Source of the DNA: a bacterium
Lineage (GTDB): Bacteria; SAR324; JACQKK01
Length of the DNA stretch: 64,000 nt
Direction: 5' to 3'
Assembly (NCBI GenBank): GCA_965205845.1
Contig: CBDBIG010000003.1
Coordinates: 20,453 to 84,452, forward strand
Shown: positions 1-27,804 of the stretch, in pieces
Layout of the letters: each line of letters opens with the position of its first letter
Position numbering within the stretch: position 1 is the stretch's first letter
Made by a program: the position numbers and the translations under genes
Notes under the pieces: generated by a model
What the model saw: only the letters and a program-made list of their open reading frames with translations
What the model was told of the DNA's origin: nothing
Databases searched by the model: none

Positions 1-410
1 ACCTGGGGGATGGTTTGGGCTTGCATGTGGGGACTCCTTATTAAGGGTGTCAGGGTGTGGTTTAAAGGGGGGGCATCCCTTTTTCTAAGCGTGCGCCAAC
101 ATAAACCTTTGGCGTTTTCATCTATAGCCCTCCTTGCCAGCGTTGTAGCCCTGCGCGGGGTCGGTTGCTGGGGCGAACAAACCCCCTCCTGCCTTGGCCA
201 CGCAAAAAAAAGAGGTTTTTTACCCATGCCTTATAGGCGCGTCTCCCCTTTGAGATGCCATTTTTGTCGTGCTGCGCTTAAACTGTTGATGTCAATTTTC
301 ATGACGGGTCTCCTTTATTTATTTAAGCAAAACATGGGGCTGCTTGTGTGCCGCGTATAAATGCGAACAGGCAGGTGCACGCAGACGCCTGTTTTTGGGC
401 TTGATCGGGT

Positions 411-1443
411 TCATTCGCTAACTCCTCCCCGCTCGGAATAAGCGGTTTTAAGGTGGCTTAGGCTAAGGGCCTGCCGTGCCCCGTTTGCCGCCAGGCTGGC
501 CAAGCGTAGGGTTTTGGTAACCTCACGCAGTGCGCCGTGGCCGTGACCAATTTTGATTAAAAAGCCAAGGGCTTTCTGCTCGCTTACTCCCCATGCTTGG
601 GCAATGGCCTCTACATCGGCACGGCGGGCTTTTTTGGGGTTTAACACCTTGCCAACGCGGCTAAACAACTGGGCATACTCTGCCGAGCGCGGGCCGCTCA
701 TCCGGGTGTAGACGCTCTCGTTGCCCATGAACACCAGGGCGCAAGCAGTGGCATCGTGCAAAGCGCGTAGGCATTCCAAGGCGGGGCGGGTAAGGTGCTG
801 TGCCTCGTCTATAATCAGCAGGGCGTCTTTTTTTGAGAGATAGGCTGAGAAGCATGCGGTAAACCACATCTCCCCCGCGTCCGTCCGCGCGCTGGCTTGG
901 GGCAAGGGCAAACAAAAGGGCTTTAAGGCAGGCAGGGGCGCTGGCAAAACTGGGCACCATTGTGCACACCCAGCAATTAGGGCGGGTTTGGGCGTAGTGC
1001 TGGGCGGTGATGGTTTTGCCAACCCCTGCGCCACCGCACACCACCGCGATGTCGCGGCTTAGGTGGGCGTAGGCAATGGCCATGCCGATTTGGCGGGCTG
1101 TGGGGGTTTCTATCCAGTCTGCGCCCTTGCTGGGCAAAAAGGCGGTTTGGCAGGCTTGGTCTTCTAGCCATTGGCAAACCTTGGCTTCAAGGGCGGCGTT
1201 ATCGCCCGTGTACTTGCCGTTAAGCCAGCGCGAAAGCGCTGTTGCCCCGCACCCAATCCGCTTGGCCGCATCGGCTTGGGACAGGCACTGCTCGGTTAAG
1301 ACCGTCTGTAGCCCCGACCGCAAAATTGACGCCTGATTGCTCGCCTCGGCGGCGGGCAATGGGGACTTTGCTAACGGGGTGAGTGGTGGCTGATCGCCCT
1401 CTTGCACCACCTGTAAACTAGGGGTTGCCTTTGCTTGGTGCAT
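411..1443 (-). pseudogene. MuB-like AAA+ transposition ATPase, split across two overlapping frames (single frameshift near 900-1030)
   Basis: The N-terminal HTH plus Walker A (VVCGGAGVGKT) lies in ORF 661-1443. Walker B (LLIIDEAQHL) and the C-terminus lie in ORF 411-1034 in another frame. Confidence 0.6.
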
Positions 1444-1541
1444 GTTTTATACTCCATGTATTGTGTTGGTTGGCGGGGCTCTATGCCCCGCGGTTTAAGC
1501 CCTGCTACGGTTCTTGGCTGTCCGTGTGGGGCTTTTTGGTT

Positions 1542-3480
1542 TTAAAAGCCCTCCACCTGGCGCTGTGCTTCCATTTGTTTAAGGGCGTTTTCCAGCCCCC
1601 TGTTAAAGTTCTCTCTCTCCTCTTGGCTTACCTCTTCGTCTGACTTGCGCTGGGCAAACACCCCCGTGATGATTTTGGACGTGTGCTCCTCGGCTGGGGG
1701 CGCGCCCGTGCTAAGCCCCGCCGCCACCTCGGCCGCACTTAGGGTGCGCTGGGCGGCCAGTTCTTCTTTGGTGGCTTTTTTGTGCTGTTTTTGCGCCTTG
1801 GCATGGGCCCTGGCGGCGGCTTGATCGGTATACCCAATCGCGGCAATACAAGGCGCAAAGCACACCAGACGCCCATCGGGGGTTTCAACCTGCACGCCAT
1901 CGCGCGGGGCGTCGGGGTCAAAGCGCACCGTGAGATGCTTGCCGGCGTAGGGGGCTAGTTTTTTGTGCCAGAAACGGTTGCCCAAAATCCTAACGCTGGC
2001 ATCGTCGCGGTGAGCCAACACCTTCTCGGCTGCCATCAAAAAGGCGCGCTGCTGCTGGGGTGTGGCTTTGGTGATTGGGGCTTGGGCGTAGCTCTGGTTG
2101 TAAACCGCATCAAAACTGCGCCCGTTGCACACGCCCCCGGTGCGCCCCGTTTGGGCATTGTGCAAGGCAATTTGCCGGTTTGCGTGGGTCCGAAAGGCTT
2201 CAATCTCAATCGCCTTGCTGGCATAGTTCTCGGGCTTGGCGCTGGGGCTGTTGCCCGTGTAGGCGCCCGCGCAAAAGGGGTGCTTTGCAATGCTTTCACA
2301 CAGGTCTTTAAAGGCGCGTTCAATGGGCTTTGATTGGCCATGATAGGGCATTGCCCAGTGGATTTTGCAGCCCAAAGCCGTGAGCAAACCTTGGGGTTCT
2401 TCTGCCTTGATTTTAAAGCGAAAGCGGTTTTTAGCCCCGCCCGTTAGCCACTTGCTAGCAAAGGCGCGCCCGTTGTCGAGCAGCACGGCTTGGGGCACGC
2501 CGTGGTTTTTAAGCAGGTCGGCAAAAGCTAAACGCACCAACAAGGTGCTCTCGTTTAAGCCAATCCGCCAAGCCACAATTTTGCCCCTCGTAAACATCCT
2601 GCAAGGCAAGCAACATGGGGCGCACGGGCTTTTTTTGCCCTGGCCACTTGGTAAAAACATCAAAGCGGTGACCATCGCCGCAAACCAAGGCCAGCGCAAA
2701 AAGGTCTTTTGCGGTGCGCTCTTGGGCGGGGTAGGTGTTTTCTAATGCCCCTTCGCCGCGCCTTGCTAGCATAATCGTAGGGCGTGACACCTCGCGCTTT
2801 AGCCTGCGGGTAAGGGTTTTTAAACTGGGCAGTTGCCAGTCGTTTTGGGCGGCTGCCTGTTGCAAGCGGCGGTAGCAAGCCGTGGCGCTGGGGCGTTCGG
2901 GGCGCAAATAGTCGCTTTTGTAGATACTCCAAGCCTCAAGGGTGCCATTGGCCGTTTGTTGCCCGCCGCCGTGGCTGGGCGCAAGCATCGGAAGCCAGTC
3001 GGTGATTGGGTAGGAACGCACCCGCTCAAGCCAACGGAACACGGTTTTACGGTCGGGGGCTGCCCCCTGTTTTTGCAGGGCTGCGATGGCTTGGTTGCGG
3101 GTTAAGCCGTTGCTCTCCAGTGCAAGCAGGGCCATTAAAACCGCCATGCGCTTGTGGCCTTGTTTTTGCTGGCTCCCAGGCAAACGGCCAAACGCATCCC
3201 AACGCTGAATTGAAGAAGAGGATGCGCCATCCTTGGCGCGTTTCATGGCCTGCTTGCCCTCCTTTGTGTGGGTTGTATACCAGCGCATTGCCAATGCCGC
3301 CTGAACTGCCCTGGGCAGGCTGCCAAAATGGTATTCCTTGCCGCCGCCACAGCCTATGGGTGAACGTGAGAGTGACTGAAAACGCCAGGCTTCTTTGTCG
3401 GCCATGCGGCGTATTACGCGTTCATTTATTGACAAACCCGCCACACCGACCAATTCTTGTGCGCTGTACCATTGTTGCAT
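1542..3480 (-). pseudogene. MuA-like DDE transposase, split across two frames (frameshift within 2509-2699; may be an authentic pseudogene or a sequencing error in a T-homopolymer)
   Basis: The N-terminus (MQQWYSAQELVGVAGL) is an MuA-type DNA-binding domain. The first catalytic Asp region (CGDGHRFDVF) is in ORF 2509-3534. The DNGRAF second-Asp region and the remaining core are in ORF 1542-2699. Confidence 0.6.
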
Positions 3481-3697
3481 GCTGCTGTATCCTTTTTTAT
3501 ACAAACAATTCGCCCGTCTGCGAGTTTCGCCCATCGTTTAGGCCAGATTTCCCAAAGTGGAACTTGAATAATTTTTGTTGCGCAGTTAAATTTTACCGTT
3601 TTTCGCAAATAAGATACTGATGTCTTTGTTTTTGTTAATTTTTTACGCATCTATCAATGGATAGATTGTTGCGTACTTCTTTGCACAGTTTGGAGGG

Positions 3698-3997
3698 TTA
3701 AGTACGCAATGCGGGGGTCGTGATTTCCCTCTTGTTTTTAACGAACTCAAGCTCGTATTTCACGACAACCTTGATTTCTTTGAGAGCGCAATCCAGACAT
3801 GCGGGGGTCGTGATTTCCCTCTTGTTTTTAACGAACCCAAGCTTGTATTCCACGACAGCCTTTGCGGTGGCAGTCTCAAAATTGCCGTTCTCATCTTCAA
3901 AACCCTCGGTAATCTCATAATTGTGGTCCGCATTGGGGAAGAGTTCCTGCCCGCATTTGCAGTGGGTGCTTGTGGTTTGTTGTGTTTTTAGTGCCAT
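3698..3997 (-). CDS. hypothetical small protein between ner and A, with an internal ~24-aa duplication encoded by an imperfect 63-bp direct repeat (3708-3770 and 3795-3857)
   Basis: The ORF is on the same strand as ner and A. The repeat is visible in both DNA and protein. No family was recognised. Confidence 0.3.
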   Translation of the reverse strand: MALKTQQTTSTHCKCGQELFPNADHNYEITEGFEDENGNFETATAKAVVEYKLGFVKNKREITTPACLDCALKEIKVVVKYELEFVKNKREITTPALRT

Positions 3998-4314
3998 TTG
4001 GTAATGCGTCCTTGTTGGTTTGTGTTATGCCCTTGTTTCATCATGCTCCAAGCCAGCCTTTTCTTGCGGATGCCCGTGCCCATTGGCGAACCGTCCGCCT
4101 TGTAACGGCTGGGCCAAATCACCTGCGGGTGCACCCCTATAATATCGGCAATCGTTTTTTCTAAATCCGGCCAGCGCTGGATTTTGACGCGACAGCAAAC
4201 GCAGGCGTAGGAATAGCCTTTTTCTTTTGAAATCCTGGTAAGGGTGTAGCCCTTTTTTGCCAAGGCTGCCCTAACGTCCATCCAATGCCAGTCTTGGGAG
4301 GTATTTGTGTCCAT
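3988..4314 (-). CDS. ner: Ner-like DNA-binding regulator with a ~30-aa C-terminal extension
   Basis: DWHWMDVRAALAKKGYTLTRISKEKGY ... RWPDLEKTIADIIGVHPQVIWPSRY aligns with Mu Ner (DWHRADVIAGLKKRKLSLSALSRQFGY ... HWPKGEQIIANALETKPEVIWPSRY). Confidence 0.8.
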   Translation of the reverse strand: MDTNTSQDWHWMDVRAALAKKGYTLTRISKEKGYSYACVCCRVKIQRWPDLEKTIADIIGVHPQVIWPSRYKADGSPMGTGIRKKRLAWSMMKQGHNTNQQGRITKWH

Positions 4315-4505
4315 GACGCCTTTTTTGATATAATTTTTAGAAAGCGGTTTTTTAAACTAAAAATACAATAGCATTAGCGTTTAAAAAAATGCAATAGCAA
4401 ATTTGTTTTTTTTTTGAGTCCGAGTTCATATTTATTTTTAAAACCACACAAGGCAATGGAAATCCTTTGTTTATAGGGGCTAAGGACGGTTATACAGGTG
4501 AAAAT
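4315..4505. promoter_or_regulatory. divergent ner/c promoter-operator region, AT-rich, with repeated caatagca motifs and the DR0 copy gagtccgagtt (4416-4426)
   Basis: Intergenic region between divergent ner and c. Repeats are 21 bp apart. AGGTGA RBS sits 6 nt upstream of the ATG at 4506. Confidence 0.5.
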
Positions 4506-5609
4506 ATGAGTCCGAGTTTGGGTCCGAGTTCGAGTAGTAAACTCGGACACTTTATCAAAAGGCTCCGTCTGCTTATGCAAGGACAGACTGAAAAGTCTTT
4601 CTCTACCCAAGTAGGACTTCATCAAGCCACATTTAGGCGATATTTAGACGGCAGCGAACCATCCAGGAAATCTTTAATTGCTATTGCAAATGGGGCTAAT
4701 GTCACCATTCAATGGCTGGCCACTGGTGAGGGCCCGATGCGCCCTGTTGAAAGCCTGATGTACCCCGAGGATGAAAGCCTTGAGGAGGATATCGCGCGGA
4801 TGGAGGCGAAAATGGCCCGGGAGGATGCGGAGTCGCTTCGAAAAACGGGCAAGCCTAAGGTTTGGCGGTCGTCCGATGTGGAGATGGATGAAGGGACCGC
4901 GCTGATGATCAGGGTGCATTTAGCGGAAAACAGCCGCCTGAGCAAAGAAAACGAGGCCCTGAGGGCCGCGGGCTTTGGTGGGGGGCCGGCCCCGTCCCTT
5001 GCCTTGGAGCAGGAAATTGCGGAGTTGAAGCGCAGAATTGAAGCGCAACAAAACCTGCTGAACGACACCCATTCGATGAGGAATGATTTCGACGCCAAAA
5101 GGCGGGAAATTGAATTGCTTAAAGAGATGGCCGCGCTTAAGCAACTGGTTAAACAGCCCCCGCCCCCGCCTACCACAAGCGGTATTGCCAACATGACCCT
5201 GCTGGGCTTGGCGGAATGCGGGCTGGTGGGTTGGCAGCAAAAAAGGCCCTTAAGCGTAAAAGCGAACTGCCCCGCCGATATGAACCCCGCAGAAGACTTT
5301 GCGGTGATGGCCACGGGACACAGTCTGTTTTACGCGGGGATTGAGCCTGGCTTTATCTGTTTTTGCGCGCCTAAAAGCGAGGCACAGGTGGGGGATGTGG
5401 TGTTTGTGCTAAAGCCGAACAACCTTGCCAGTTTGGGATTGGTGAAAGAATTAAAGCGCAAAGAAGGGGGAGTAGAATGGCTGGTGCTCCAAAAATGGGA
5501 CGACCCCGACCCCAAAACGGGGGAGCGAAAACCTTACACCCTGAAAGAAAACATGGACGAAATAGAACAGGTTGTGCCCGTGATTTATGTGCAACGCAGG
5601 GCGGTTTAG
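4506..5609 (+). CDS. prophage repressor (CI/Mu c-like): N-terminal HTH_XRE, central coiled-coil, C-terminal S24/LexA-like domain
   Basis: QTEKSFSTQVGLHQATFRRYLDG is an HTH. The C-terminus (VMATGHSLFYAGIEPGF...VGDVVFVLKPNN...LVKELK) has a LexA-like fold. The gene is divergent from ner. The ATG at 4506 has a good RBS; the ORF track starts earlier at a TTG (4467). Confidence 0.7.
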   Translation: MSPSLGPSSSSKLGHFIKRLRLLMQGQTEKSFSTQVGLHQATFRRYLDGSEPSRKSLIAIANGANVTIQWLATGEGPMRPVESLMYPEDESLEEDIARMEAKMAREDAESLRKTGKPKVWRSSDVEMDEGTALMIRVHLAENSRLSKENEALRAAGFGGGPAPSLALEQEIAELKRRIEAQQNLLNDTHSMRNDFDAKRREIELLKEMAALKQLVKQPPPPPTTSGIANMTLLGLAECGLVGWQQKRPLSVKANCPADMNPAEDFAVMATGHSLFYAGIEPGFICFCAPKSEAQVGDVVFVLKPNNLASLGLVKELKRKEGGVEWLVLQKWDDPDPKTGERKPYTLKENMDEIEQVVPVIYVQRRAV

Positions 5610-7640
5610 AAAAAAAGGAGTTTAAAGCTAGATTATTTTTTATTTTTGAGCCAATCGCGCAAAAGCCTTTATAAAACAAGGGCTTGATCCATGAAAAGGG
5701 CGAAAAATTGAGTTTAAAGCTGAGTTTAAAGCTAGAGCACCTAGCTTTAAACTTTTGCGGGGTGGTTTTGGGGGTTTGTGCTAAAGCCGAACAGCCTTGC
5801 CCGTTTGGGATTGGTGAAAGAATTAAAGCGCAAAGAAGGGGGAGTAGAATGGCTGGTGCTCCAAAAATGGGACGACCCCGACCCCAAAACGGGGGAGCGA
5901 AAACCTTACACCCTGAAAGAAAACATGGACGAAATAGAACAGGTTGTGCCCGTGATTTATGTGCAACCCAGGGCGGTTTAAAAAAAAAGGAGTTACAAGC
6001 TAGATTATTTTTTATTTTTAGGCCAACCGCACAAAAGCCTTTATAAAACAAGGGCTTGATCCATAAAAAGGGCGAAAAATTGAGTTACAAGCTGAGTTAC
6101 AAGCTAGAGTGCCCAGCTTGTAACTTTTGCGGGGTGGTTTTGGGGGTTTGTGCTAAAGCCGAACAGCCTTGCCCGTTTGGGATTGGTGAAAGAATGGAGG
6201 CACAAAGAAGGGGGGCAACCTGGCTGGTGCTCCAAAAATGGGACGACCCCAACCCCAAAACGGGCGAGCGAAAACCCTACACCTTGCAAGAGAACATGGA
6301 CGAAATAGAACAGGTTGTGCCCGTGATTTATGTGCAACCCAGGGCGGTTTAAAAAAAAAGGAGTTCACAGTTCAATTATTTTTTATTTTTGAGCCAACCG
6401 CACAAAAGCCTTTATAAAACAAGGGCTTGATCCATAAAAAGGGCGAAAAATTGAGTTCAAAGCTGAGTTCAAAGCTAGAGTGCCTAGCTTTGAACTTTTA
6501 CGGGGTGGTTTTGGGGGTTTGTGCTAAAGCCGAACAGCCTTGCCCGTTTGGGATTGGTGAAAGAATGGAGGCACAAAGAAGGGGGGCAACCTGGCTGGTG
6601 CTCCAAAAATGGGACGACCCCAACCCCAAAACGGGCGAGCGAAAACCCTACACCTTGCAAGAGAACATGGACGAAATAGAACAGGTTGTGCCCGTGATTT
6701 ACGTGCAACCCAGGGCGGTTTAAAAAAAAAGGAGTTCAAAGCTAGATTATTTTTTATTTTTAGGCCAACCGCACAAAAGCCTTTATAAAACAAGGGCTTG
6801 ATCCATGAAAAGGGCGAAAAATTGAGTTCACAGTTCAGTTCACAGTTCGAGCGCTGAACTGTGAACTTTTGCGGGGTGGTTTTGGGGGTTTGTGCTAAAG
6901 CCGAACAACCTTGCCCGTTTGGGATTGGTGAAAGAATGGAGGCGCAAAGAAGGGGGGGCAACCTGGCTGGTGCTCCAAAAATGGGACGACCCCAACCCCA
7001 AAACGGGGGAGCGAAAACCCTACACCTTGCAAGAGAACATGGACGAAATAGAACAGGTTGTGCCCGTGATTTATGTGCAACCCAGGGCGGTTTAAAAAAA
7101 AGGATGTTATTTTTGATTCGTAAAAAACTATTTTTGATATTAACTATGTTGTTGATTTAAAAATAGAAATTTTCTTTACATGGATTCGTAAATAGATTCG
7201 TAAAAAACTATGGAATAACGAATCGTGAAGTGCCGAACTCCGACCTTTTGCGGGGTGGTTTTGGGGGTTTGTGCTAAAGCCGAACAGCCTTGCCCGTTTG
7301 GGACTGGTGAAAGAATGGAGGCGCAAAGAAGGGGGGGCACAATGGCTGGTGCTCCAAAAATGGGACGACCCCGACCCCAAAACGGGGGAGCGAAAACCTT
7401 ACACCTTGCAAGAGAACATGGACGAAATAGAACAGGTTGTGCCCGTGATTTACGTGCAACCCAGGGCGGTTTAAAAAAAAAGGAGTTCAAAGCTAGATTA
7501 TTTTTTATTTTTAGGCCAATCGCGAAAAAGTATTTTCAAAACAAGGGTTTGATCCATGAAAAGGGCGAAAAATTGAGTTCAAAGCTGAGTTCAAAGCTAG
7601 AGCACCTAGCTTTGAACTTTTACGGGGTGGTTTTGGGGGT
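5402..7640. repeat. tandem array of six ~371-bp units (unit starts ~5402, 5775, 6146, 6517, 6888, 7267; last partial unit to 7640). Each unit is a c-leader-like module plus a copy of the last ~200 bp of the c gene
   Basis: The C-terminal 67 codons of c recur in ORFs 5778-5981, 6056-6352, 6427-6723, 6892-7095 and 7271-7474. The intervening ~170 bp is homologous to the c 5' leader. Confidence 0.9.
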
Positions 7641-7759
7641 TTGGTTTTACGCTTCAAACGCATTATTCCTTAGAAATTTCACAAAATCGCTACATTGTTG
7701 GCACCACTTTACGGTCACACTGGGGTAAAAAAACCTAGCGTGGGTAAGGTGGGTGGCAC

Positions 7760-8143
7760 ATGCGAGATATAGCGTTGTTTTTACTGGCTTTTATAACATT
7801 AAGCCTTGTATTTGCAGAGATTTGGTTAAGCCAAAACCGCTCTTTAAGGGTGTTTAAGGCGCACATAGTCGGTTGTTATGATGGCAACACCTGCAGGTTT
7901 ACCCTGCCCAGTCACCACCCCATTTTAGGCGAGGGGGTTCAGGTGCAAATTGTGGGGTTGCAAACGCCAAAACTACGCGAACCCACCTTAAGCAAGGCCA
8001 GCAGCGCGCGCGATGCCATGCGTGGCCTGCTTGAACGCGCCGATGATATTTTTTTAGTAAACACAAAGCGCAAAAACCGCAGCCTGCACGCCAGCGTATG
8101 CGCAAATGGCAAAGACATGGCAAAGACGCGCCAAATGGCTTAG
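7760..8143 (+). CDS. secreted thermonuclease (SNase)-like protein
   Basis: N-terminal signal/TM. VGCYDGNTCRF and VQIVGLQTPKL resemble the SNase V.DGDT and R..G.D.PE motifs. Confidence 0.45.
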   Translation: MRDIALFLLAFITLSLVFAEIWLSQNRSLRVFKAHIVGCYDGNTCRFTLPSHHPILGEGVQVQIVGLQTPKLREPTLSKASSARDAMRGLLERADDIFLVNTKRKNRSLHASVCANGKDMAKTRQMA

Positions 8144-8261: not shown

Positions 8262-8315
8262 GTTGCCCCAGTTGCCCCAGTTGCCCCAGTTGCCCCAGTT
8301 GCCCCAGTTGCGCCA
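8262..8315. repeat. 9-bp microsatellite (GTTGCCCCA) x5 plus one variant copy
   Basis: Direct reading. Encodes (PQL)n or (WGN)n depending on strand. Confidence 0.9.
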
Positions 8316-9509: not shown

Positions 9510-10787
9510 ATGAAACCCCATCGCCCTGTTTACCTAGCCGCCCATGCCCTAACCCCGTTTACTGGAAAAGGGCATCCGCGCTTTATTTCCCCTTCCAAGG
9601 CACAGATTACAGGGCAAAAAAACCCAAGCCTTGAAGAGCAAATTGCCCAAGTGATTAGGCAACTGTTTGCGGGCGGTGGCCCTCAGCAGCAAAGCCTTGA
9701 TGCCAATTTGGTCGACCGCGGGTTGGTTGGCAATTTTGCGGGAGAATTGTTTTCGCAACAAGGGCATGTGGGGGCCATGGTATCGCGGGGAGATTCGCGC
9801 TTAGAAGGTGTGGGTTTTACCCGCTGTGAAGCGGCGTGTGCCTCGGGTGGTGTTAGTCTGGTGGGTGGTGCAGAAGCCATTCAAGCAGGCTGTGATGTGG
9901 TGCTGGTGTTGGGTGCAGAAGCACAAAATACCGTGAAAGCACGGGTGGGGGCTGACTACCTGGCTCGTGCCTCCCATTATGAAACAGAGCGATCCCTCGA
10001 TGAATTTACTTTTCCAGCCATGTTCGCGCGCCGCCTAAAAGCCTACAAAGAACGCTATCAGGTAAGCACCCGCGATGTTGCCCAGTTTTCAGTTAAAGCC
10101 TTTGGAAATGCCAACCGCAACCCGCTGGCGCATATGCACCACGTTCAAATGTCCCTTGAGCAAGCCGAAAGCACGGGTGAACACAACCCCACTTTTTTAC
10201 AAAGCCCCGAACTAAACCCTCACTTGCGCATCAGTGATTGCTCCCCTGTAACCGATGGCGCGGCGGCCGCTATTTTTGCCTCGAAGGAAGGCCTTGATAA
10301 GTTAGGCATTGCCCCGAATGATTGCATTCAGTTGATGTCGTATGCCCTTGCCTCCAACCCCTTAGGCAAGGTAGGAGACCTGTTACACATGGATACCACC
10401 GCCCTTGCCTGCCATGAAGTGTTTGCCGATGCGGGCAAAGGTCCTGCCGATATACAAGTGGCAGAGGTGCATGACTGTTTTACCATTGCGGAACTGCTGA
10501 TGTACGAAGCCATTGGTTGGGCCAAAGCAGGTCAAGGTCTCGATAGGCTCCAATCGGGGGATACCACCTTGGAAGGCAAAATGCCTGTGAACACGGGAGG
10601 CGGTTTGGTAGGTTTTGGGCACCCCGTGGGGGCGACTGGTGTCAAGCAGGCGGTCGAGATCCATCGCCAAATGAAGGGGCTTTGCGGCGATTATCAGATA
10701 AAAAATGCCCCTCAACTGGGCCTTACGGTCAATATGGGCGGGGATGACCGAACCTGTGTTGCCATGGTATGGTGCGATGCTGCCTGA
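9510..10787 (+). CDS. thiolase-family protein (acetyl-CoA C-acyltransferase / SCP-x-like)
   Basis: N-terminal VYLAAHALTPFTGKG. Active-site Cys region CEAACASGG. C-terminal NTGGGLVGFGHPVGATG. Confidence 0.65.
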   Translation: MKPHRPVYLAAHALTPFTGKGHPRFISPSKAQITGQKNPSLEEQIAQVIRQLFAGGGPQQQSLDANLVDRGLVGNFAGELFSQQGHVGAMVSRGDSRLEGVGFTRCEAACASGGVSLVGGAEAIQAGCDVVLVLGAEAQNTVKARVGADYLARASHYETERSLDEFTFPAMFARRLKAYKERYQVSTRDVAQFSVKAFGNANRNPLAHMHHVQMSLEQAESTGEHNPTFLQSPELNPHLRISDCSPVTDGAAAAIFASKEGLDKLGIAPNDCIQLMSYALASNPLGKVGDLLHMDTTALACHEVFADAGKGPADIQVAEVHDCFTIAELLMYEAIGWAKAGQGLDRLQSGDTTLEGKMPVNTGGGLVGFGHPVGATGVKQAVEIHRQMKGLCGDYQIKNAPQLGLTVNMGGDDRTCVAMVWCDAA

Positions 10788-16160: not shown

Positions 16161-16361
16161 AGGCAACGCGACCTTGGCACGAAATCGGGCTACCAAGAGA
16201 TACCTTCGGTGTGGATCACGAGGCAGGGTATGTTTGCGCAACACGCTAAAAACTTGTCTAAAAGCGGATGGCACGCCATGCCTAAAAATATAGCATAAGA
16301 AAGTCTGCGCCTATTTTAACGGACAGCAAGCGACAACACCATTTTTGAGCGTGTCAGTAAG

Positions 16362-16772
16362 TGGAGGCGGCGGGAGTCGAACCCGCGTCCTAATGGTGGT
16401 GAACTAAACGTTACTACAGGCTTAGCGACGTTTTGCGTTTAACAATGAGGATGTTGAAGCCGTCGCGGTCTCACCTCATGCGAGTTTGCCCTAGGAATTC
16501 GCCCAAAACACCAGCAAACCACTGTGCATAGGCTAGCACCATAAATGACACGGAAAAAGCGCTTATCGTGCGTGGGCACCTCCGCGGTCCAGCCCCTAAA
16601 TTAATAGGGGTGTAAGCACTCTGCTAAACCGCAATTAAGCGGCGAGGGCTACTGGAGCGTAGTTGCTGTTATTGGCATCTACGTGTGTGAACGATTTTTT
16701 ACGTGGCCCTTCGCTCAACCACGGCCTGCTCGCCTAATATCTCCTTCCACAGTCGAATGCCATAACGCCCCC
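16362..16772 (-). ncRNA. ssrA: tmRNA (ssrA), standard one-piece; predicted tag peptide ANNSNYAPVALAA
   Basis: 5' GGGGGCG...GCATTCGAC and 3' GGACGCGGGTTCGACTCCCGCCGCCTCCA form a tRNA-Ala-like acceptor with G3:U70. The 3' domain aligns with E. coli ssrA. The resume frame is GCC AAT AAC AGC AAC TAC GCT CCA GTA GCC CTC GCC GCT TAA. Confidence 0.8.
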
Positions 16773-27705: not shown

Positions 27706-27804
27706 TGGCGGAGATGCGTGGGAATCGAACCCACCCAAAGCGGTATCAGCGCCCTGCACACGGGTTTGAAGCCCGGGAAGCCCACCAGTGACTCATCCAT
27801 CTCC
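27706..27804 (-). tRNA. selC: tRNA with anticodon UCA and a ~26-nt variable arm; candidate tRNA-Sec (selC) or UGA-reading tRNA-Ser derivative
   Basis: Anticodon loop CUUCAAA is identical to the E. coli selC loop. Discriminator G73, encoded CCA, 99 nt. The D-arm is not canonical 6/4. Confidence 0.55.

Follow-up and report, generated by a model that had tools for sequence, protein, structure and literature searches.

We analyzed a 64,000-nucleotide stretch of DNA (the window; contig CBDBIG010000003.1 of GenBank assembly GCA_965205845.1, from a SAR324 bacterium), in which positions 1 to 7694 represent the left end of a Mu-like (transposable) prophage in reversed orientation and the remainder is host chromosome. 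The prophage carries a series of noncoding cassettes of approximately 150 bp (here called modules), each of which is built around a short word that differs between cassettes and agrees within each. A module contains the word as three direct repeats (DR0, DR1, and DR2) and once as an inverted repeat (IR), followed by a run of T residues. The same architecture occurs with unrelated words in homologous prophages, and IR covaries with each of the three direct copies. Judging from these comparisons, we tentatively favor, at somewhat less than an even chance, an explanation in which the module is a self-contained base-pairing element, i.e., a terminator of the repressor gene c or a short leader-like RNA whose three 5' arms are interchangeable.

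Tandem Repeats Finder reported an array with a period of 371 bp (6.0 copies; 87% matches) downstream of the genuine c gene, in which the first unit (unit 0) starts. Each array unit consists of the last approximately 200 bp of c, a module of approximately 170 bp, and a G-rich tail (TTTTGCGGGGTGGTTTTGGGGGTTTG) that rejoins c at the microhomology GTTTG in the unit alignment. The repressor gene, the array, and the modules of the window are as follows.

4506-5609, plus strand: c repressor gene (ATG at 4506, stop at 5609; from the open reading frame [ORF] list, Pfam Peptidase_S24, and PHROG transcriptional repressor)
4416-4549, plus strand: c-start module; DR0 4416-4426 and DR1 4508-4518 (both GAGTCCGAGTT), DR2 4520-4530 (GGGTCCGAGTT), IR 4540-4549 (AACTCGGAC at 4540-4548)
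5402-7643, plus strand: tandem array; unit starts at 5402, 5774, 6146, 6517, 6888, and 7267
5619-5757, plus strand: module u0; word AGTTTAAAGCT; DR0 5619-5629, DR1 5711-5721, DR2 5723-5733, IR 5743-5753, TTTT 5754-5757
5991-6129, plus strand: module u1; word AGTTACAAGCT; DR0 5991, DR1 6083, DR2 6095, IR 6115-6125, then TTTT
6362-6500, plus strand: module u2; DR0 6362 (AGTTCACAGTT); DR1 6454, DR2 6466, and IR 6486-6496 (AGTTCAAAGCT)
6733-6871, plus strand: module u3; DR0 6733 (AGTTCAAAGCT); DR1 6825, DR2 6837, and IR 6857-6867 (AGTTCACAGTT)
7115-7249, plus strand: module u4; word GATTCGTAAA, 68-bp spacer class; DR0 7115, DR1 7183, DR2 7195, IR ACGAATC 7218-7224
7484-7622, plus strand: module u5 (last unit); word AGTTCAAAGCT; DR0 7484, DR1 7576, DR2 7588, IR 7608-7618, then TTTT

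The recurrent module and its unit-specific words had been reported in a preliminary description of this DNA, and all of the coordinates given there were reproduced. DR0 had been placed after the preceding stop codon; this position stands and can be refined to 10 nt past the stop and 92 bp (68 bp in u4) before DR1. The distance from DR1 is 12 bp to DR2 and about 34 bp to IR (30 bp at the c start). The c-start module, which is collinear with the downstream modules in the alignment, has the same layout as the array modules without the T-run. It encodes the first approximately 14 codons of c, and the first G of its DR1 (4508) is the G of the c ATG (4506 to 4508). Module u4 also retains the loop of an older module, together with a remnant IR (AACTCCGAC; 7236 to 7244) and TTTT (7246 to 7249).

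Five different words are present in this one prophage. The word AGTTCAAAGCT was observed 8 times (0.04 expected) and GTCCGAGTT 4 times (0.17 expected); these counts are far above expectation and thus exclude chance. The 64-kb window contained no further copy of the module words at 0 mismatches. Within the array, the variation of the words and the loop exceeds that of the spacer 2- to 4-fold and that of the tail about 7-fold. Modules u2 and u3 are reciprocal, each holding the DR0 word of the other, and this swap, already read as an exchange between neighbors, is compatible with recombination within the conserved spacer. Another genome has one more hybrid unit (P0026), in which DR1 comes from one word and DR2 and IR come from another, and P0028 is a unit with a one-base DR0 variant. 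The occurrence of such hybrid and variant units elsewhere indicates that the array recombines. Given that ORFs from equivalent array units are recorded on NCBI genome contigs of 707, 771, and 877 kb, we consider the array to be real and not an assembly artifact.

Relatives were sought with the conserved DNA pattern of the 3' end of c, with the c protein, or with an alignment of this protein. None were found in GTDB genome contigs, IMG/VR, JGI metagenomes, or INPHARED phages, and the sample therefore consists of seven contigs (L001 to L007) of one low-coverage ENA metagenome assembly, all of which are left ends of Mu-like prophages. Nearly all of these loci have one module right after the c stop, with shared orientation and geometry and with different words; ACTGCCAAGTT, AGTTCCATGTT, AGTTTAAGTGA, GACCAGCG, and TACCAGCG are mutually unrelated. 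The modules of the relatives include the following.

L001, downstream module: word ACTGCCAAGTT, DR0-DR1 distance 92
L002, downstream module: word AGTTCCATGTT, DR0-DR1 distance 92
L003a and L005: word AGTTTAAGTGA, DR0-DR1 distance 68
L003b and L004a: word GACCAGCGTCTT, DR0-DR1 distance 91
L004b: word GACCAGCGGCTT, DR0-DR1 distance 91
L006a: word TACCAGCG, DR0-DR1 distance 91

In total, 17 intact modules from the window and the seven loci share the same architecture and spacing; they include at least 10 unrelated words and fall into three spacer classes with no sequence relationship to one another. DR1 and DR2 are always 12 bp apart, and a run of 4 to 7 T follows IR in every intact downstream module. 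The module words had no other occurrence in 9 to 20 kb of flanking phage DNA. We looked for homologous prophages lacking the arrangement; most relatives have it, while the module is deleted in L006b (a deletion derivative rather than an empty site) and the downstream module of L007 is decayed, with copies that no longer match. The early proposal of a conserved architecture with free, compensated sequence thus holds for the window and equally for homologous prophages, whose words are unrelated.

The inverted copy had also been described as tied to the direct copies of its own unit, and the alignment of the relatives bears this out. In the alignment of class-1 modules (i.e., those of the window array, L001, and L002), IR was paired with DR2, DR1, and DR0 in 89%, 81%, and 78% of the cells, respectively, with changes on both sides at 9, 7, and 8 pairs. 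The observed covariation score was reached by 0 of 500 shuffles, and in a control in which the partner was slid by 1 to 3 columns, pairing fell to 17 to 56%. Covariation of the inverted copy with DR2, DR1, and DR0 is the signature expected of alternative pairing. A script count over 14 modules of all classes gave 412 Watson-Crick pairs; the 7 G-U pairs were all confined to helix edges, and most of the 43 mismatches fell outside short cores. The number of Watson-Crick positions was 9.4 to 10.1 of 11 within a module versus 4.6 between modules. Since the bases of the word are identical across copies and the stems are Watson-Crick, these data favor base pairing or templated copying over a degenerate protein site.

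Predicted hairpin energies ranged from -10 to -18 kcal/mol (u0, -15.5), with u4 having a weak hairpin of its own (-4.9). Folding, which had been suggested as a check, gave a minimum-energy partner of IR that depended on the module, i.e., DR2 in u0, DR1 in the c-start module of the window, L001, and L002, and DR0 in L003a. The RNAalifold consensus was a 13-bp DR1:IR helix with 8 compensated pairs. A search of Rfam 15 matched no family; the lone hit was a chance microRNA (E = 0.87; 21 bits versus a gathering score of 90).

Our preferred explanation of these patterns is that the module acts through one nucleic acid strand, most likely a plus-strand RNA, in which IR would be able to pair with any of three identical partners. 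A DR2:IR or DR1:IR hairpin with its U-run would terminate plus-strand transcription arriving from c, and in class 1 it would probably also end a short RNA of approximately 75 to 90 nt begun inside the spacer; DR0 and DR1 would serve as alternative partners for IR. Promoter-like elements are present in class-1 spacers, i.e., TTGAGC-18-TATAAA in the window (u0, plus strand, 5646 to 5651 and 5670 to 5675; score, 9/12), TTGATA-18-TAGAAA in L001, and TTGAAA-17-TTTAAA in L002. In the c-start copy, which belongs to one immunity type and has a broken U-run, pairing of IR with DR1 would bury the c initiation region, and pairing with DR2 would leave it open. No protein gene lies within or beside the module, and the module recombines independently. 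A reader encoded in the module itself can only be nucleic acid. With the reader and the target inside the same 150 bp, the word would be free to change if all copies change together, and each phage could have a private word.

A number of observations weigh against this explanation. All seven related loci stem from a single low-coverage metagenome assembly. A consensus scan for Rho-independent terminators called no module (fewer than 5 T in 8, or a GC-poor stem), and a consensus promoter scan called none at the modules. The A/U-rich stem and the short U-run (4 to 7) imply possibly weak termination. Modules u1, u3, and u5 have lost the -35-like hexamer, and the other two spacer classes are without a convincing promoter. 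In the c-start module, the likely c promoter is downstream of DR0, which is perhaps not in the same RNA as IR. Array units with a mismatched DR0 or DR1 exist (u2, u3, P0026, and P0028). The identity of DR0 and DR2 outlasts the stem (at least 14 nt compared in u4 [GATTCGTAAAAAAC]; 12 nt in class 3), and L004a and L004b have a joint T-to-G change in DR0 and DR2 at an unpaired position; pairing with IR explains neither. Class-1 words keep their outer bases (GAGT....AGYT) while the central four vary, unlike what a pure stem constraint would give. Finally, the exact 12-bp period and the fixed 92- or 68-bp spacing would also suit protein-DNA binding.

Several of these features lead to a rival explanation that we consider somewhat unlikely, namely, that the words are DNA sites (iterons) for a sequence-specific protein. 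The geometry (12-bp period, 92 or 68 bp, and constant DR2-IR distance) is exact even with an 8-nt matched core, and iterons would accommodate the extra-stem identity of DR0 and DR2 with its joint change, the constant class-1 flanks around a variable 4-nt core, and the location of DR0 upstream and the other copies downstream of the promoter-like element. At the c start, DR0 abuts the -10 element of a minus-strand promoter-like site. One candidate reader would be the I-alpha domain of the Mu-type transposase, with the module as an enhancer similar to the internal activation sequence (IAS) of Mu and with two site clusters around a bendable AT-rich spacer; another would be a protein of packaging or regulation whose gene lies farther right in the phage. 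Two types of I-alpha were found, type 1 with class-1 spacers and type 2 with class-3 and 68-bp spacers (6 of 6 loci), and putative recognition-helix residues differ between phages with different words. In Mu and D108, the operator/IAS and the transposase N terminus vary in a matched fashion. However, with n = 6, the I-alpha correlation is inseparable from shared ancestry, and five words in one prophage are beyond the reading of one protein. Natural multisite operators are degenerate, whereas here no copy departs from the others at any of the 11 to 13 positions and the inverted copy complements them perfectly. There is no DNA-binding gene in or beside the module, which recombines independently of its flanks, and the conserved T-run after IR is left unexplained.

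The DNA-binding proteins c and Ner are disfavored as readers. The c protein is of the CI/LexA type (N-terminal helix-turn-helix [HTH], coiled-coil linker, and C-terminal S24 peptidase-like domain). Its 22 homologues have a conserved C-terminal half and a mosaic N-terminal HTH of at least 8 types, and none of the others starts with a translated word. L003a and L005 have identical modules behind different HTH types (P0007 and P0010), the L003a-type HTH recurs in L004b with another word, and the window and L001 have the HTH type and the c-start word in common and differ in their downstream words. The words therefore fail to covary with the HTH type, and a dyad operator for the repressor or Ner, the alternative raised in the preliminary description, is disfavored by these same combinations. 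Similar Ner proteins also accompany different words. A role as the c operator in every immunity type was likewise rejected. The c-start module is confined to the HTH type of the window (type A; the window, L001, and L007, with a decayed copy in L006, also of type A) and is missing from five other HTH types, whose c-ner regions hold ordinary short palindromes; the downstream words, sought as orphan operators of other immunity types, were absent from all seven sampled c-ner regions. Nor is the element mainly a matter of the c start, around which a switch had been proposed at first; it normally lies past the c stop, with a T-run at its end. Better candidates for the real repressor/Ner operators in type A may be the CAATAGCA repeats nearer ner, a motif that recurs in the c-ner spacers of L001 and L006.

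Other candidate functions were tried and rejected. Transposase sites of attL (L1 to L3) do not fit words that differ among units of one prophage, and the interval from the module to the ...GCACA terminus has conserved repeats of its own, such as GAGTCGCA. A leader peptide or small toxin was dismissed on the grounds that neither the six-codon ORF nor the 50-amino-acid ORF of u5 (both described below) is conserved across classes. For a hok-like type I toxin, ORFs from the TTG before DR1 vary in length and frame, with a stop after DR2 in L002 and no such ORF in L003a. An inverton, a miniature inverted-repeat transposable element, or a target-site duplication was rejected in the absence of flipped copies and of terminal repeats in the spacer, and a CRISPR-repeat mimic, a retron, or a T-box was rejected in view of no similarity, no reverse transcriptase or Cas genes, and no Rfam hit. 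A minus-strand promoter from the DR0 complement scored 10/12 in the L001 downstream module, 9/12 at the L001 c start, and about 7/12 by eye at the window c start; it is absent from the window array units and is thus not general.

The modules appear to share their ancestry with the c start. Class-1 modules align to the c-start region without length change, over an 81-bp spacer and the DR1-DR2-IR block, and on this alignment they are identified as paralogues of a c promoter/leader. The module would thus descend from the c promoter/leader and have its usual place just past the c stop, between c and the attL transposase sites. Truncated c fragments of u1 to u5 have a common derived C terminus (Q-P-R-A-V; Q-R-R-A-V in full-length c), and c fragments of the array carry substitutions known from full-length c alleles elsewhere (P0002 and P0029). 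These shared features point to one founding duplication followed by exchange with related prophages. The array may accordingly be pictured as born by a single duplication at the GTTTG microhomology and later diversified through recombination with related prophages. The module recombines independently of both flanks, as in L003a and L005, which have a common module with different c types and left-end types.

This ancestry is also the starting point for an explanation that we regard as quite unlikely, in which the module is a neutral relic, i.e., a copied c promoter/leader whose sole remaining use is as the c terminator, with the array as junk of unequal crossing-over among the numerous related prophages in one genome and the copies kept alike by molecular drive (hairpin-templated quasipalindrome correction via IR together with slippage or gene conversion). 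The homology and collinearity with the c start region fit this idea, as do the Watson-Crick stems with G-U pairs only at helix edges, which templated copying would yield. The prophage of the window, with its split A and B genes, also has a defective look; in L006b and L007, the module has proved dispensable or has decayed; recombinant units exist (u2, u3, and P0026); and the c fragments of the units hold alleles of real c genes. Against it, the four-copy layout and the spacing persist across three otherwise unrelated spacer classes, which argues for purifying selection on the layout. The decay of the L007 downstream module and the L006 c start shows that matching of the copies is not automatic and needs maintenance, whereas automatic copying would have prevented it. 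Most single-copy modules have a matching DR0 despite its distance of approximately 115 nt from IR, which is long for template switching. Quasipalindrome template switching had been offered in the preliminary description as part of the operator alternative; by itself, it cannot explain the identity of DR0 and DR2 beyond the stem, which includes covariation at a position that IR cannot template.

A third alternative, which we rate as highly improbable, is that the words are heterospecific recombination sites, with DR0 and IR flanking an invertible promoter or with DR1-DR2-spacer-IR as an FRT-like core that would recombine solely with a core identical to it. The order of DR1, 1 nt, DR2, a 9-nt spacer, and IR is formally like that of the three FRT symmetry elements, DR0 and IR form inverted repeats around a promoter-bearing segment of approximately 125 bp, and the class-1 words have a variable 4-nt core between constant flanks. 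However, there is no recombinase among the called genes of any locus, the 17 modules share one orientation relative to c, with none flipped, and the class-3 and 68-bp words share nothing with the class-1 flanks.

If the module is a base-pairing element as we favor, the antisense RNA immunity systems of phages P4 and P1/P7 would be its nearest functional analogues. In P4, the CI RNA pairs with seqA and seqC, resulting in transcription termination (PMC4825925), and in P1/P7, a few nucleotide differences in ImmI were held responsible for heteroimmunity (PMC6906374). As in the P4 CI and P1 c4 systems, direct-repeat targets and one complementary copy lie within a few hundred base pairs of the immunity region, and the complementary blocks show compensated, phage-specific variation. 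Unlike in those systems, the direct copies of the module are all upstream of the complementary copy, which is a terminator-like hairpin arm, not a processed stable RNA; in addition, the module belongs to a Mu-like phage with a protein repressor. We found no controlled gene (antirepressor or replication) downstream of the module, where there are only 50 to 270 bp of noncoding DNA and the transposase end sites; in the window array, a truncated c fragment follows the module. With no controlled downstream gene and with the RNA itself a postulate, we did not assign the module to the P4 CI/P1 c4 group.

The coupled covariation in the alternative pairings (tac, fbi, and antitac) of hok-family mRNAs offers a further analogue. 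The module resembles these mRNAs in that one element would pair alternately with at least two look-alike partners, such that at least three blocks covary; it differs in having partners that are perfect 8- to 13-nt copies and in lacking a conserved toxin ORF, its small ORFs being unconserved across classes. Like an intrinsic terminator or attenuator, it has a hairpin and a T-run on the coding strand just past the c stop, and the T-run is lost in the c-start copy, which must be read through; unlike such a terminator, it has an A/U-rich stem beside the U-run and a 5' arm present three times, one copy of which lies 92 or 68 nt upstream. The Mu IAS (enhancer) and operators O1-O2 are bound by the repressor and by the I-alpha domain of MuA. 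Similar to the IAS, the module lies within about 1 kb of the left end, has two repeat clusters with a bendable spacer and phage-specific sequences, and has one copy between c and ner. In contrast to Mu, the repressor is CI/LexA-like rather than Mu c-like and is uncoupled from the words, and the copies are perfect rather than degenerate, with a usual site downstream of c. Plasmid iterons and partition-site repeats include the 11-bp parC iterons flanking a promoter. The module shares with these its direct repeats of approximately 11 to 12 bp on both sides of a promoter and a replicon-specific sequence, whereas it has no cognate Rep or ParR gene, lies in a transposable prophage, and has an inverted copy that forms a perfect hairpin with a T-run.

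The remaining features of the prophage in the window are as follows. On the minus strand, upstream, the Ner-like gene is accompanied by the 99-amino-acid ORF and the split A and B genes.

411-1443, minus strand: B, split into two overlapping ORFs
1542-3534, minus strand: transposase A, two overlapping ORFs with HTH_Tnp_Mu_1/2, DDE_2, and Mu-transpos_C Pfam matches
3698-3997, minus strand: 99-amino-acid ORF between ner and the transposase gene
3988-4314, minus strand: Ner-like early regulator (Pfam HTH_35), divergent from c
4366-4399, strand unassigned: CAATAGCA repeats (copies at 4366 and 4392) in the c-ner spacer, from the repeat list
7644-7694, strand unassigned: probable left terminus of the prophage, ending in CACAAAATCGCTACA

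The reverse complement of the last of these features reads TGTAGCGATTTTGTGAAATTTC and resembles Mu-type ends, and the region is the probable left terminus by analogy with the ...GCACA termini of L002, L003, L005, and L006; the right end of the prophage falls outside the window. The splitting of A and B (411 to 3534) may result from either prophage decay or homopolymer sequencing error. The 99-amino-acid ORF contains a direct duplication of approximately 90 bp (3700 to 3840), and the halves of the protein repeat (...EFVKNKREITTPA...). On the NCBI contig of 877 kb, a frame antisense to B (window 1076 to 1336) is fused to a truncated-c array unit (P0030), which points to another genome in which this prophage is present in rearranged or deleted form. 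Just beyond the prophage end is a perfect tandem repeat of six copies of GTTGCCCCA (8262 to 8315), and the host part of the window contains a tmRNA gene (16361 to 16772; tag, ANNSNYAPVALAA) and a tRNA-Sec gene (27706 to 27804).

Several small ORFs occur in the array. An intact 67-amino-acid ORF, with a GTG start after GGGGG, is present in three units (5778 to 5981, 6892 to 7095, and 7271 to 7474) and encodes only the C-terminal third of the repressor S24 domain; such fragments could be dominant-negative or decoy partners of the full repressor. The G-run of the units has 6 or 7 G, which frameshifts the c fragments of u2 and u3 (decay or homopolymer error). A six-codon ORF (MKRAKN or MEKQKN) is found in the window at 5691 to 5711 (u0, and also in u3 and u5) and in L002 at 7794 to 7814, with a TGA stop overlapping the TTG just before DR1. 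L001 has an ATG at this position, and its frame crosses DR1-DR2 and stops in the hairpin loop. In the last unit, an ORF from the TTG before DR1 (7573 to 7728) exits the array and encodes a 50-amino-acid peptide with a hydrophobic core (LALNFYGVVLGVWFYASNALFL), which is also found in other genomes (P0028) and is unconserved in the metagenome relatives.

The related loci offered some further observations. In L003 (1500 to 1640), two Mu-like prophages have facing left ends approximately 115 bp apart, one ending in CTTCTTTTGCACA and the other beginning with TGTGCTCAAGCAAATGC. Short subterminal repeats lie 30 to 80 bp inside the left termini (L003, 1670 to 1720 and 1450 to 1480; L005, ~10540 to 10575; L006, 4555 to 4590; L007, 11225 to 11250; and L002, 8060 to 8090), with one end type having 2 to 5 copies of AACCCACAAA and another having 3 copies of ATATCCCGCG. 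Two inverted copies of AACCCACAAA, spaced with a 12-bp period, are also present where the L003b repressor gene starts (CTTGTGGGTT). Downstream of the module in L001 (~6180 to 6330) is an ORF for a Com-like zinc finger (RCPRCNALL...EIKCRRCG), and this prophage probably adjoins the right end of another Mu-like prophage.

A more far-reaching proposal, which we think unlikely, is that the word is an RNA-level identity tag governing interference between coresident or superinfecting Mu-like phages. The short hairpin RNA would then act only on transcripts with the same word (e.g., the c initiation region in phages with a c-start module), new words would be under diversifying selection, and the six-module array would be a collected arsenal or memory of specificities gained by recombination with competitors. 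If true, such a tag would constitute a nucleic acid layer of immunity or anti-immunity in transposable phages, analogous to and distinct from P4 CI and P1 c4.

Whichever explanation holds, the array shows shuffling of immunity-region cassettes among coresident prophages, and the three-way coupled covariation is an unusually clean signal for transposable phages of a little-known group. Were the words read by a protein, the module would mark where the enhancer or iteron system of these phages is to be found. If base pairing is correct, the modules would represent an undescribed family of regulatory RNAs or terminators at the region controlling lysis and lysogeny in transposable phages. A word that is private and changes rapidly, in hosts harboring many related prophages, suggests a system of specificity that could decide on the silencing, induction, or exclusion of prophages.

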